Shown here one piece after another: positions 30,000 through 33,134 of a stretch of DNA of 33,134 nucleotides; position 1 is the first letter of the stretch; each line of letters starts with the position of its first letter. Under the pieces are notes generated by a model. That model saw only the letters and a program-made list of their open reading frames with translations. It had not been told where the DNA came from and did not search any database. The stretch lies in contig JBBDPM010000006.1 of NCBI GenBank assembly GCA_040876345.1, positions 522,547 through 555,680 of the forward strand, read 5' to 3'. The position numbers and the translations under genes are program-made. The stretch comes from Candidatus Woykebacteria bacterium. GTDB lineage: Bacteria; Patescibacteriota; Microgenomatia; Woykebacterales; RBG-16-39-9b.

Positions 30000-30059
30000 C
30001 GCGTTTTACCTTGTTAAGGTAATAATACACCCAAAAAAAGTAAACAAAAAGGTTTTATG

Positions 30060-30245
30060 AGGTGATATGAAGGGTGGGCAGTTGTGGGCTTCCTTCGAAG
30101 CGATCCACAACTGCCCAGCGGAACTGCGAAGATGGTTCCAAGGTCTGCAGGTGCAAACCCCTTTGCTAGCCTTGGCGAGTCTACCAGCAAAGCCATCTTA
30201 CAAAGTTCCTTAGTCAGACGGGAGGACTCTTCCCCCGTGGACTTC
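30060..30245 (-). ncRNA. Candidate ~190-nt structured RNA directly downstream of the tRNA
   Basis: Perfect 13-bp stem TGGGCAGTTGTGG/CCACAACTGCCCA; a multi-way junction closed by GGAACT/AGTTCC and AAGATGG/CCATCTT; G-U (rather than C-A) appositions point to the - strand. Confidence 0.55.
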
Positions 30246-30248
30246 TTT

Positions 30249-30323
30249 TGGAGCGGAAGACGGGATTCGAACCCGCGACCTCATGGTTGGTAGCCACGCG
30301 CTCTACCACTGAGCTACTTCCGC
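30249..30323 (-). tRNA. tRNA-Gly with anticodon ACC (75 nt, CCA encoded)
   Basis: Minus strand: GCGGAAG-TA-GCTC-AGTGGTA-GAGC-G-CGTGG-CTACCAA-CCATG-AGGTC-GCGGG-TTCGAAT-CCCGT-CTTCCGC-T-CCA; Gly identity elements G1-C72, C2-G71, G3-C70, U73, C35, C36. Confidence 0.93.
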
Positions 30324-30333
30324 TGATCTCTCA

Positions 30334-30372
30334 TTGGCTCGCTCTGGTCGAGTATGTTGGGAACTTTTATCA
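30334..30372 (+). repeat. 39-bp att-like repeat, copy A
   Basis: TTGGCTCGCTCTGGTCGAGTATGTTGGGAACTTTTATCA; 35/39 identical to copy C and 32/39 to copy B (counted by hand). Confidence 0.85.
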
Positions 30373-30394
30373 CAGTATTTGGACTAGGTGAGGG

Positions 30395-30802
30395 TTATTT
30401 TAGATTTAATTGCCACGAAACACCATACTTGTCTGCTACCCATCCAAATTTTTTGCTAAAACCATAATTATCAAGAGACATCATGACACCTCCACCTTTG
30501 GAAAGTTTTTGAAAGAGTAATTCAAGTTCATTTTCGTCTTCGCAATTGACATAAATAGACATTGAAGGAGTGAACGTAAAGTTATGTTCAAGAGTATTTT
30601 CGCTTGCTATATATTCTTGGCCATCAAGTGTAAATGTTGCATTCTTAATTAGCCCTTCTTTACCCCCTGGTTCATCTTTCTTCCAATAGTCAATGTGTTT
30701 TATCTCTGAATTTTTAAAAAGCGAAGTGTAAAACTTTATCGCTTCCTCAGCTTTGCCGCATTGTTCCCCAACGAACATAAGGAATGTAGAAGTTTTTTGC
30801 AT
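30395..30802 (-). CDS. VOC family protein (PhnB / 3-demethylubiquinone-9 3-methyltransferase-like)
   Basis: TFLMF....AEEAIKFY.SLF, FTFTPSMSIYV.C, YGFSKKFGWVADKYGVSWQL. Confidence 0.92.
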   Translation of the reverse strand: MQKTSTFLMFVGEQCGKAEEAIKFYTSLFKNSEIKHIDYWKKDEPGGKEGLIKNATFTLDGQEYIASENTLEHNFTFTPSMSIYVNCEDENELELLFQKLSKGGGVMMSLDNYGFSKKFGWVADKYGVSWQLNLK

Positions 30803-30867
30803 AAATCATATTTTATCACAGATTCCAATGTTCAACTTGGGGTGTTGGAAAAGTGAGGCTAAAGTAT

Positions 30868-30906
30868 TTGGATCGCTCTGGCCAAGTATGTGGGTAACTT
30901 TGACCA
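30868..30906 (+). repeat. 39-bp att-like repeat, copy B (diverged)
   Basis: TTGGATCGCTCTGGCCAAGTATGTGGGTAACTTTGACCA; aligns without gaps to copies A and C. Confidence 0.8.
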
Positions 30907-30940
30907 ACAAAAAGCTAGTCTAACAGACTAGCTTTTTGTT
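30906..30940. terminator. Bidirectional intrinsic terminator
   Basis: AACAAAAAGCTAGTC-TAACA-GACTAGCTTTTTGTT, perfect 15-bp inverted repeat. Confidence 0.8.
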
Positions 30941-30957
30941 TAGAAAATTTAGGTAGT

Positions 30958-31140
30958 TTACTTTTTCCCAAGTTCTTCATTAACCCAGTTTAGCTTTTCT
31001 TCCAACATCTTCTTTTTCATTTCCAGATGTTCTTTTGACATCTTATGTTCCTGACAACAATCCATCATCATTGGCATTCCGTGTCGTCCCTGCGAACAGA
31101 AGCATTTGTCACAATTTTCGCAACATTTTTGATCCATCAT
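30958..31140 (-). CDS. 60-aa Cys/Met/His-rich protein with C-terminal coiled coil
   Basis: SD GAGGGGG before ATG 31140; KCCENCDKCFC...HGMPMMMDCCQEH, then LEMKKKMLEEKL. Confidence 0.7.
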   Translation of the reverse strand: MMDQKCCENCDKCFCSQGRHGMPMMMDCCQEHKMSKEHLEMKKKMLEEKLNWVNEELGKK

Positions 31141-31193
31141 ATAAGTCACCCCCTCTTATTAACTTGAGCATTATTACAGTTTCCTACTAAACC

Positions 31194-31811
31194 TTAGAAA
31201 CCTAGCTCTTCTTTGACAATAATTACATTAACTACTCTACCGAGTCCAGGATTTTCCCCTCTAAAGATAACTATTTTGTTCAATTGTGTCCCGACGCCAT
31301 ACTTTGTTTTCATATTCTTATCTTCAAGAGGAACGACATAATTTTCAAGTCTTTCCAAAGCGTCCTCTAGAGTTTTGACAATTTTTTGCTCCCCCACAAC
31401 AAAGATAAGATTCGGAGAAGTAAAAACTATGTGGGGCAATTGACTACCTGTATTGGAACCGATAACAAACTCTCCCTTCTCAGTCAGAGCGTGTACGCTA
31501 CCCACGTAGTAATCTGAAAGAACAGATTGTTTCCGTAGTGAGCGTTGTTTTATCGGATCCATCTCATTAAGAACTGTTTCGTGTAAGTTATTCCAGCTAT
31601 GACTCGCTGATTTTAGCAGTTGTACAAAACCTATTTGTTCCAATGTTCTGGAAGAACCGTTCATAACCGAGGCTCCAGACGGAATCATCTCTTTTATCTT
31701 ATAGAGAGCCTCTGCTCTATTATTTACAACAAAGGGCTTAATTCCCTTCTCCTCCAAAGAACTCACGGTTTTGGTTATAATATCTTTTGCAATAGCGGTA
31801 TTGGTTTTCAT
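31194..31811 (-). CDS. LUD-domain protein (LutC/YkgG-like)
   Basis: GSSRTLEQIG, SVHALTEKG..VIGSNTGSQL, FVVGEQKIV, VIIVKEELGF. Confidence 0.85.
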   Translation of the reverse strand: MKTNTAIAKDIITKTVSSLEEKGIKPFVVNNRAEALYKIKEMIPSGASVMNGSSRTLEQIGFVQLLKSASHSWNNLHETVLNEMDPIKQRSLRKQSVLSDYYVGSVHALTEKGEFVIGSNTGSQLPHIVFTSPNLIFVVGEQKIVKTLEDALERLENYVVPLEDKNMKTKYGVGTQLNKIVIFRGENPGLGRVVNVIIVKEELGF

Positions 31812-31897
31812 AGTCTGCTTTTAAAAACGGTCTTTACTAAATAGACTAATAGATATATAATTACTACAGAATTAATAGTACTACAATATTTATAGTT

Positions 31898-32212
31898 ATG
31901 TCAAGCTTAGGTAAAGATTTCTGTAAATGCTCTTCAGCTGAACTGCGTATTTTGGGTGATTTCTGGACCCTCGAAGTACTGCAGACTTTAGTCGATGGGG
32001 GGAAAAGATTTTCAGAGCTGGAACGCGCTCTTCCTGATATCAATCCAACTACACTAACCAAACGTCTTAAGAAGCTCGAAAATGAGAAGTTAATTGTAAA
32101 AAAAAGGGAAACTGTTGACAAGCTCTCGGTTGTCTATTTCTTAAGTGAAAAGGGTCAAGACACGATCCCTGTTTTATCCCAAATAAAGGCTTTTGCAGAT
32201 AAACACCTCTAA
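31898..32212 (+). CDS. HxlR-family winged-helix transcriptional regulator
   Basis: LGDFWTL.VL..L..G.KRFSELERALP.INPTTLTKRLKKLE...V.Y.LSEKG; divergent from the LUD gene. Confidence 0.9.
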   Translation: MSSLGKDFCKCSSAELRILGDFWTLEVLQTLVDGGKRFSELERALPDINPTTLTKRLKKLENEKLIVKKRETVDKLSVVYFLSEKGQDTIPVLSQIKAFADKHL

Positions 32213-32237
32213 CTCTTTAGATTGCAGTACATATTCT

Positions 32238-32276
32238 TTGGAGCGCCCTGGTCGAGTATGTTGGGAACTTTTACCA
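32238..32276 (+). repeat. 39-bp att-like repeat, copy C
   Basis: TTGGAGCGCCCTGGTCGAGTATGTTGGGAACTTTTACCA; the first 8 nt equal the + strand sequence at the tRNA-Gly 3' end (30248-30255). Confidence 0.85.
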
Positions 32277-32281
32277 AATAA

Positions 32282-32998
32282 CTAGATAACCCAATCGTAA
32301 ATGAATTTCACCCCAATTAGTAGTATTGCTACTAACACTACTTTCTTAAACTTACCTTGAGGAATTTTGGAGACTACCTGTTTCCCTGTGAAAGAGCCTA
32401 ATAGAGCCACCACTAAGAGGGCTGGGATATACCAATAAAACTTTTCTACCAAAAACCCTTGGCTTAGATAAATTGGTATCCTGGTTAAGTCAACCGCAAG
32501 GGCAATAGCCGCAGCTGTAGCAATATATTTTTCTTTTGGCAGGTTAAAGGCTGTCAAGAAAGCACCTCTCAAAGCCCCGCCTGTTCCAATCAGTCCTGCG
32601 AGAAAACCTGATAAACCCCCGCCTAGTATAGAGGTATTTGTAGAAGCCTTAATTTGAAAGTTCCCACTCCAAGACCAAACAGAATATGAAACTAGAAACA
32701 AACCAAGTAAACCCTTTAAGGTTTCTTGCGGTGTGTAACTAACTAGTAAAGCCCCAATTAAGGTAAGAATAACGCTGGGAATACCAAACCTTAGAATTAT
32801 TCCCTTGTCCAAACCGTGACGGAAAAATCCAATTCTGCCAATGTTGCCAAAAATATGAAGGAAAGCTACTAAAACCAGAGCGGTCCTAAAGTCAAAGAAC
32901 AATAATGATAGTGGCAAGGCGATAGTTGAGGAACCAAAACCTGCGATTGTTCCAATCACTTCTGCAATAAAGGCGGCAGGAAAAAACACGACTTCCAT
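32282..32998 (-). CDS. Sulfite exporter TauE/SafE family membrane protein
   Basis: GTIAGFGSS...P, GGLSGFLAGLIGTGGALR, GSFTGK; multiple TM segments. Confidence 0.9.
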   Translation of the reverse strand: MEVVFFPAAFIAEVIGTIAGFGSSTIALPLSLLFFDFRTALVLVAFLHIFGNIGRIGFFRHGLDKGIILRFGIPSVILTLIGALLVSYTPQETLKGLLGLFLVSYSVWSWSGNFQIKASTNTSILGGGLSGFLAGLIGTGGALRGAFLTAFNLPKEKYIATAAAIALAVDLTRIPIYLSQGFLVEKFYWYIPALLVVALLGSFTGKQVVSKIPQGKFKKVVLVAILLIGVKFIYDWVI

Positions 32999-33125
32999 TA
33001 ATTTAGTCTAGCACAAAATTTTGAACGTACTTGGGTACTAAAAATTGAGGCCAATAAAAAATTGGCTAGAACTTAAAAAGGACTGTTACAACAGGATAGA
33101 TTGTTAGTTTTTGGTGATCGTACAA

Positions 33126-33134
33126 TTGGCTCCC
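33126..33134 (+). other. Start of a fourth repeat copy, or the 3' end (...GGGAG-CCA) of a minus-strand tRNA cut by the window edge
   Basis: TTGGCTCCC matches the first 9 nt of copy A at 8/9; only 9 nt are visible. Confidence 0.35.

Follow-up and report, generated by a model that had tools for sequence, protein, structure and literature searches.

Direct repeats stacked behind a tRNA-Asn gene of a Candidatus Woykebacteria genome as probable attachment-site arms from large serine recombinase genes

The window analysed here is a stretch of 33,134 nucleotides (nt) from a Candidatus Woykebacteria genome (designated G000; 1.06 Mb in six contigs), corresponding to positions 522547-555680 of contig C6 and forming the 3' end of that contig, the largest of the assembly. 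Near its right end are three gap-free direct copies of a short repeat (copies A, B and C, at 30331-30372, 30865-30906 and 32235-32276), the other two having identities of 79% and 88% with copy A. The repeat corresponds to the stretch of ~12 conserved codons at the end of large serine recombinase (LSR) genes (W-x-x-L-V-[DE]-Y-V-G-[TN]-[YF]-[YF]). The copies are probably right arms of phage-type attachment sites (attP) that came from the 3' ends of such genes, were stranded by insertion at tRNA 3' ends and are now stacked behind a tRNA-Asn gene. In this bacterium with a tiny genome, imported accessory genes form a small stack, and the copies mark its joints.

The repeats had been pointed out in a preliminary description made from the sequence alone. 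Alignment confirmed all three, and a 26-mer of the repeat core gave two matches at ≤3 mismatches, compared with none in 100 shuffles. Read from the TGG, the window copies encode W-[LIS]-A-L-[VA]-[EK]-Y-V-G-N-F-[YD], and the four synonymous differences reported earlier (GCT/GCC, GTT/GTG, GGG/GGT and TAT/TAC) are all present in the sequence. The same description had proposed that the repeat is the detached C-terminus of a recombinase gene, which was borne out by two LSR sequences from other genomes and by the pattern of variation among the copies. An intact LSR of 498 amino acids (aa; PF00239 and PF07508) in genome G163 has the C-terminus ...WRWLVDYVGTYYKYI / ...DDLETWRWLVDYVGTYYKYI; 8.4 kb upstream of it lies another tail, which is detached. 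A C-terminal LSR fragment at locus L204 ends in ...RQAWLRLVDYVRTYF. The background cited in the description evoked tyrosine recombinases of the SSV type; the parent is in fact an LSR with the two domains named above.

Among the 120 best homologues of the G163 protein, at least 70 are the same up to the tryptophan and then continue with R-R-G-R-D-S-N-P-R or similar, an ending that corresponds to the translated antisense strand of a tRNA acceptor stem and T-arm. Tails of the native type (VGTY- or VRTF-like) are present in five of the 120, and many others end a few residues past the tryptophan. Junctions of this kind also exist in G000, which has four LSR genes (C3:3418, C6:262418, C4:25477 and C5:4503). 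The gene at C6:262418 ends ..NENWSG* (..AAC TGG TCG GGG TGA) inside the end of tRNA-Pro(CGG), and that at C5:4503 reads from its TGG without interruption through the antisense strand of tRNA-Leu(CAG). These endings indicate that the TGG of the tryptophan codon is the complement of the tRNA CCA and that attP lies inside the last codons of the LSR itself. The tail of the C4 LSR (WLSQLMEVYH) was considered as that of a cognate Asn-type enzyme and was rejected, the resemblance being too weak.

In 100 unique detached copies, homology begins at the third base of the TGG and ends after 12 codons (a 34-nt block), and mean column entropy rises from 0.29 bits at the first codon position to 0.41 at the second and 1.00 at the third. 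This codon-periodic variation points to a coding origin of the repeat. Together with the nearby in-frame stops, it would also resemble the end of a host protein gene that serves as the integration target and is restored by each element, leaving duplicated 3' ends behind. However, no host gene or peptide of G000 ends in the repeat motif, the only long open reading frames (ORFs) bearing the tail are LSRs, and the repeat is tied to tRNA ends, which its first bases match; we regard a host-gene origin as very improbable. There is equally little to recommend a free-standing host element, such as a small peptide gene, a 3' untranslated or terminator element, or a small RNA. The reverse complement of the repeat does lie 5-51 nt past the stop codons of neighbouring genes, and its sequence is conserved across families; however, it has no start codon or conserved upstream frame, most copies have in-frame stops 0-7 codons upstream, and Rfam scans of the repeat regions returned nothing but the tRNA. 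Furthermore, the short stem of copy A is not preserved in copies B and C. The dyad arms described earlier (TGGTCGAGT...ACTTTTACCA) are likewise no conserved feature: conservation over the 100 copies ends after column 35, and the dyad extends beyond the conserved block.

The copies sort by the bases after the TGG into families that equal tRNA ends (GCTC for Asn, GCTG for Gln and GCGG for Ser). Linkage to tRNAs was sampled at 37 loci around pattern matches, of which one FemAB look-alike (L195) was removed, leaving 36 loci with 44 copies. A convergent tRNA gene was present on the expected side of 18 of the 44, compared with seven in the mirror-image control. In 17 of these 18 the tRNA was of the type forecast by the first bases of the copy (GCGG-Ser in 11, GCTG-Gln in six), and the exact four bases agreed with the tRNA end in 14. 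Both this matching and the LSR/antisense-tRNA junctions uphold the earlier suggestion that the TGG of the repeat is the complement of a tRNA CCA end, and a comparison with related genomes that had been proposed with it found the repeat both at recombinase C-termini (G163 and L204) and near tRNAs.

The array in the window was likewise predicted to stand behind a tRNA gene just past the window end. The last nucleotides, TTGGCTCCC (33126-33134), form the CCA end of a tRNA-Asn(GTT) on the minus strand, and the body of this tRNA appears to be at the start of contig C1, which opens with GGCTCCCGGGGTGGGATTCGAACC...; a join of C6 to C1 over a 7-nt overlap, GGCTCCC, completes the CCA of this tRNA. What had been taken for the possible start of a fourth repeat is therefore this CCA end, and the alternative forecast, a minus-strand tRNA ending GGGAGCCA, agrees with the join. 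Public contigs extend 311-351 nt beyond the window end. The window repeat has only TGGCTC (6 nt) in common with tRNA-Asn, the rest being LSR tail. The features of the array are as follows.

30249-30323, minus strand: tRNA-Gly(ACC) with an unusual A34 (ARAGORN; Rfam RF00005, 73 bits)
30335-30370, plus strand: copy A, detached LSR tail and probable attP right arm, WLALVEYVGNFY (nhmmer E 2.9e-10, the copy being part of the model)
30395-30802, minus strand: cassette 1 cargo, PF06983 gene (3-dmu-9_3-mt, glyoxalase or vicinal oxygen chelate (VOC) fold), 135 aa (E 2.9e-33)
30869-30904, plus strand: copy B, diverged detached tail, WIALAKYVGNFD (nhmmer E 0.075, the copy being outside the training set of the model)
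30895-30951, no strand assigned: terminator-like hairpin with 27-nt arms, 81% complementary, and A/T runs on both sides, between copy B and the Cys-rich ORF
30958-31149, minus strand: cassette 2 cargo, Cys-rich ORF, 63 aa, with no Pfam family match
31194-31811, minus strand: cassette 2 cargo, LUD-domain protein, 205 aa (PF02589, 1.1e-26)
31898-32212, plus strand: cassette 2 cargo, HxlR-type regulator, 104 aa (PF01638, 5e-19)
32239-32274, plus strand: copy C, detached tail, WSALVEYVGNFY (nhmmer E 1.9e-8, the copy being part of the model)
32282-32998, minus strand: cassette 3 cargo, TauE/SafE family permease, 238 aa (PF01925, 2.1e-33)
33127-33134, minus strand: last 8 nt of tRNA-Asn(GTT) (...GGGAGCCA), the probable integration target, with the remainder at C1:1-74

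The first 6 nt of copy A, TGGCTC, equal the tRNA-Asn end, and its remnant frame extends to a stop at 30391. The 5' end of tRNA-Gly(ACC) lies 11 nt to the left of the TGG of copy A, and this tRNA forms the outer, tRNA-distal flank of the array. The three modules named in the preliminary description (VOC; Cys-rich peptide, LUD and HxlR; TauE) were supported by Pfam matches, except for the Cys-rich ORF. For the VOC-fold gene, a homologue of 79% identity is present in a genome from a different family, where it also lies ~360 nt downstream of tRNA-Asn; in 15 of the 16 genomes of the G000 family it had no match, and in the remaining one the match was 36% identical. This distribution and the repeated proximity to tRNA-Asn support transfer of this cargo gene.

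The layout had also been called integron-like, and a classical integron would comprise an IntI tyrosine recombinase, an attI site and cassettes ending in folded attC sites. The likeness is confined to the layout, with small, promoterless-looking modules and a repeat following the stop codon of the neighbouring gene. The machinery does not match: no IntI and no attC structure were found, the three PF00589 genes of G000 (C6:51512, 374945 and 386448) are far from the window (C6:522.5-555.7 kb), and the repeat, 34 nt of codon-periodic sequence derived from an LSR gene, has no conserved inverted-repeat pair. A classical integron has next to no probability here.

The geometry of the repeat is that of an attP site. 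When the outer repeat columns (19-31, ..ATGTTGGAACTTA..) were compared with the consensus of 47 tRNA ends (..GGATTCGAACC..), the best match, to the T-arm, was at an outward shift of +5 (score 0.445, the next being 0.373), whereas the inner columns matched best at a shift of 0. In LSR sites the zinc-ribbon motif is described as occupying positions 16-24 of attP and as lying 5 bp further inward in the bacterial site, attB (Rutherford et al. 2013, PMC3783163). The repeat thus behaves as a P-type half-site, with the tRNA as the partner B-type half-site. The right arms are conserved and the left arms mostly unrelated among copies, which is expected of junctions between an attB flank and an attP arm. 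The central dinucleotide could be localised no more finely than the 4-6 bases that the repeat and the tRNA end have in common.

One left-arm motif is recurrent. With ≤1 mismatch, GAGGCTAA was present in 16 of 100 copies and in 190 of 20000 background windows (~1%). The left arm of copy B bears this recurrent sequence as GAGGCTAAA-N5, and GAGGCTAAA with ~5 nt also directly follows the CCA of real tRNA-Gln(TTG) and tRNA-Gly(GCC) genes in G000. The motif, which lies immediately to the left of many tail copies, may represent a shared flank or the second att arm of cassettes that lack a recombinase. A comparison by eye of GAGGCTAAA with the 3' coding sequence of LSRs and with half-sites in mirror image gave no convincing match. 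Its sites are at 30853-30867 of the window; at C6:430.8, 432.1, 432.8 and 435.7 kb; and at C5:14373, C5:15180, the C5 3' end and C5:9513-9532. In the tail frame it gives two stop codons (TGA GGC TAA).

These properties suggest a mechanism in which the last conserved LSR codons would double as the enzyme's own DNA half-site, the TGG codon and the next 3-5 bases being the complement of the CCA, discriminator and last acceptor bases of the target tRNA. Integration at a tRNA 3' end would split the LSR gene, with the LSR body then reading into the antisense tRNA and the ~12-codon tail being left at the far, tRNA-distal end of the insert, beside the sequence formerly downstream of the tRNA. Crossover probably takes place within the 4-6 common bases. 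Three stranded tails behind one tRNA-Asn imply that at least three insertions were stacked there, and in the simplest history three successive insertions at the tRNA-Asn end would each have been followed by deletion of the LSR and most of the element. Cargo and distal arm would have remained, copy A being the oldest and copy C the youngest. The window itself holds remnants or satellites and no complete LSR element, in agreement with the earlier statement that it contains no recombinase gene; none of the four G000 LSRs lies there.

Several observations weigh against this interpretation. The join to C1 that supplies the tRNA-Asn has the short 7-nt overlap as its basis. The first 8 nt of copy C, TGGAGCGC (32239-32246), equal the end of tRNA-Gly(GCC) and match that of tRNA-Gly(ACC) in 7 of 8 positions, and so are not tRNA-Asn-like; the parent element of this copy may have been specific for tRNA-Gly, or else the array is perhaps composite. 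No LSR gene or remnant was found in the window or between any copy and tRNA-Asn, and the left arms contain no LSR coding sequence. No intact LSR was found that ends in exactly the Asn-type tail (WLALVEYVGN..), none of 18 metagenome copies and none of 11 other copies being on a long ORF, and only two of 104 unique copies are joined to LSR sequence. In the linkage sample, 26 of the 44 copies had no convergent tRNA within the examined stretch, although eight of these lie ≤2.7 kb from a contig end. Moreover, canonical LSRs recombine only attP with attB (PMC3783163), and repeated insertion at a tRNA already flanked by an element therefore needs an extra assumption.

Further points that fit a serial-insertion history poorly would suit a rival in which the units without a recombinase are non-autonomous cassettes. 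Each would circularise with a complete att site, its own tRNA-proximal end being joined to the tail arm, and would be inserted singly at a tRNA end by an LSR whose gene lies elsewhere. Such a system, which corresponds to the trans-mobilised cassettes of the preliminary description, would be to serine recombinases what gene capture is to integrons. The repeat would have the same origin, and the difference would lie in how the stack was built and in present activity. Units are often only 0.35-1.4 kb long, the spacings of tRNA-linked copies are mostly 0.35-2.4 kb, and pairs of copies 0.35-1 kb apart are present in several genomes. Among the 18 tRNA-linked copies, an LSR lies between copy and tRNA only at L176 (two copies), and it does not abut the tRNA. 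The recurrence of GAGGCTAAA-N5, including at real tRNA ends, points in the same direction, as does one internal joint in genome G007 that has the same flank as tRNA-Asn itself. The rival is also favoured by the near invariance of the tail-arm DNA in detached copies across many families and by the four LSR genes encoded in G000. The same idea has been put forward for integrase-less islands of Dehalococcoides (PMC3146451).

On the other side, 84 of the 100 left arms lack the recurrent motif, as do three of the four joints in the window. Contigs from four runs (one study; three runs possibly from the source sample) showed the array intact and contiguous with no indels or alternative joints, although contigs drop rare variants; no circular form was seen in them either, and rare forms would escape such contigs. 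LSRs are not known to act on attL-type sites without a directionality factor, and the restriction to attP and attB counts against the cassettes as well. Decay of full elements, furthermore, accounts for an identical layout. We therefore hold mobilisation in trans to be possible and rather unlikely. The same doubtful standing applies to the broader idea that this class of the Candidate Phyla Radiation (CPR) runs a serine-recombinase system of gene capture at tRNA ends, in which cassettes of 1-3 genes would be stacked and exchanged in trans and the LSR tail, dual-coded as an attP half-site that mimics the tRNA T-arm, would be swapped on integration. If this were true, the swap of the C-terminal tail could be a built-in switch between an integrating and a resident form of the LSR.

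Stranded tails are not confined to the window. A second G000 array has copies at C6:431.2, 432.1 and 434.2 kb, convergent with the other tRNA-Asn gene (C6:430281-430355), behind which three to five copies lie; an additional copy lies 3.1 kb behind tRNA-Leu(CAA). In G006 and G007, which belong to one genus in the family of G000, the repeat is present behind tRNA-Asn in two and four copies, respectively. In G011 a copy lies 200 nt from a contig end and the tRNA-Asn 150 nt from the end of another contig. Homology between G006 and G007 ends ~70 nt past tRNA-Asn, beyond which the islands have only the repeat in common, and the ORFs of these islands have no relative in G000 except for one distant match. 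This divergence past a shared tRNA indicates that the repeat marks a variable island at a conserved tRNA. The comparison of cassette content among relatives, suggested earlier as a check, accordingly shows that island genes differ among G000, G006 and G007. Of 11 tRNA-Asn loci examined in the other genomes of the family, none was an unoccupied site with tRNA-Gly immediately after tRNA-Asn.

The surroundings of the arrays also differ between genomes. Genes on opposite sides of the tRNA-Asn island of G007 (L019) are arranged differently in G000 (C6:429.7-446 kb): the gene to the right of the island is directly upstream of the G000 tRNA-Asn at C6:430281, and the counterparts of the genes to the left of the G007 tRNA-Asn are at C1:14.3-15.2 kb, close to the other tRNA-Asn. 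It appears from this that the ancestral locus was inverted or split, its breakpoints falling at the recombination sites. An array of degenerate Gly-type tails behind tRNA-Gly(GCC) spans the boundary between C5 and C6 (C5:14373-16979 and C6:1-75), and several G000 contig ends fall in tRNA genes or beside tail arrays. At L188 (G116:C7, ~8100) and L180 (G202:C21, ~7190) the left arm of a tail copy touches the 5' end of the next tRNA in the cluster, a tRNA-Arg. This is the same layout as copy A with tRNA-Gly(ACC) and is expected if elements insert between neighbouring tRNA genes.

To gauge the distribution of the tail, 401 genomes of the class were scanned with the back-translated pattern L-V-[DE]-Y-V-G-[NTK]-[FY] at ≤1 mismatch. 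Matches were present in 124 of them, with ~183 matches compared with 14 for the reversed control; the tally includes two matches in an unpublished genome (G086), which is outside the inspected loci. The 30 inspected loci comprised 22 detached short frames, seven unrelated long ORFs and one end of a 498-aa ORF, that of G163. The seven look-alikes, which include FemAB-like genes (..HVEYVGTYD..), a transposase (FVDYEGTF) and two other long ORFs, were removed from the copy set. A scan of contigs with a 20-mer pattern gave 55 stretches, of which ~50 were chance matches in unrelated phyla and five were real (L038, L061, L063, L065 and L077). The labels on related contigs and proteins were Microgenomates (Curtissbacteria and Gottesmanbacteria), one 'Saccharimonadales' and two evidently wrong 'Gammaproteobacteria'.

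Among published systems, the ssrA islands of Dehalococcoides come closest; they stand in tandem downstream of a tRNA-like gene with a repeat at each boundary (McMurdie et al. 2011, PMC3146451). There, the 3' end of dsiB, a CcrB-like LSR gene, always overlaps attL, and its reading frame continues into the neighbour or into the target. An integration module is missing from some islands, which were proposed to be mobilisable in cis, and the recombinase is perhaps fully functional only on the circular form (PMC3146451). Overlap of the LSR gene with the att site at its 3' end is common to those islands and to the present family (G163, two of the G000 LSRs and at least 70 of the 120 homologues). The two differ in their target, which in Dehalococcoides is ssrA (tmRNA), cut in the T-loop, and here consists of ordinary tRNAs at or near the CCA. 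They also differ in the repeat, which there is a 20-bp copy of the target 3' end (PMC3146451) and here the recombinase's own tail, with 4-8 bases in common with the tRNA. Finally, the host here is a CPR bacterium, and the units (0.5-1.4 kb) are far smaller than the Dehalococcoides islands (PMC3146451).

Unlike the sites of phage integrases, attP here lies within the last codons of the integrase and attB is a tRNA end. Phage attP sites are mostly intergenic, and the corresponding attB sites lie mostly in protein genes. Integrons are resembled in the stack of small, mostly one-gene units, the recombination-site repeats and the fixed chromosomal anchor; there is no IntI, attI or folded attC here, and the recombinase class, the site structure and the anchor, a tRNA end, all differ. 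In archaeal integrases of the SSV1 type, attP is part of the integrase gene itself, and that gene is split when integration into a tRNA gene takes place. They are tyrosine recombinases of archaeal viruses, with an att site that reproduces the tRNA gene at length and a split away from the extreme C-terminus. The parent gene here encodes a serine recombinase, which separates it from split integrases of that type. The integrase of myxophage Mx8 is also a tyrosine recombinase. Its attP similarly lies within the int coding sequence, and integration gives a recombinant int with a new 3' end (PMC6070905); the passage concerned describes no arrays of stranded tails such as those found here. The large serine integrases of phages (A118/LI, Bxb1 and phiC31) belong to the same family as the present enzymes (Resolvase, Recombinase and zinc-ribbon domains), with short att sites and the +5 relation (PMC3783163). 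In the literature covered, no description was found of LSRs with attP in their own 3' end acting at tRNA CCA ends in CPR bacteria.

An origin in LSR tails explains a short conserved sequence that is widespread in genomes of this class, and, in CPR genomes, the tail repeat offers an easy way to recognise islets gained by horizontal transfer, whose limits are otherwise difficult to draw. After Dehalococcoides, this would be a second lineage with serine-recombinase islands stacked at a tRNA-like gene. The family also offers attP/attB pairs of natural origin, with a tRNA end as attB, an attP encoded within the integrase and a tRNA-type specificity that can be read from 3-5 bases. Such pairs are relevant to understanding, and perhaps to reprogramming, the specificity of serine integrases.

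The two tRNAs that frame the window array are themselves unusual. The tRNA-Asn of C1 has a C at position 33, where U is universal, and is identical to the other tRNA-Asn of G000 at 60 of 75 positions. The tRNA-Gly(ACC) is identical to the tRNA-Gly(UCC) of G000 at 64 of 77 positions, and the genome also carries Gly tRNAs with the anticodons GCC, UCC and CCC. One or both of the framing tRNAs may be decaying or imported duplicates. Between a glycine-transporter-family gene and tRNA-Gly(ACC), a segment of ~200 nt (30040-30248) has a G+C content of 51%, compared with the window mean of 42%. It gave no Rfam match. With a strong predicted fold on both strands (-85 and -87 kcal/mol) and a perfect 12-bp stem at 30077-30121, this segment may be an undescribed small RNA.

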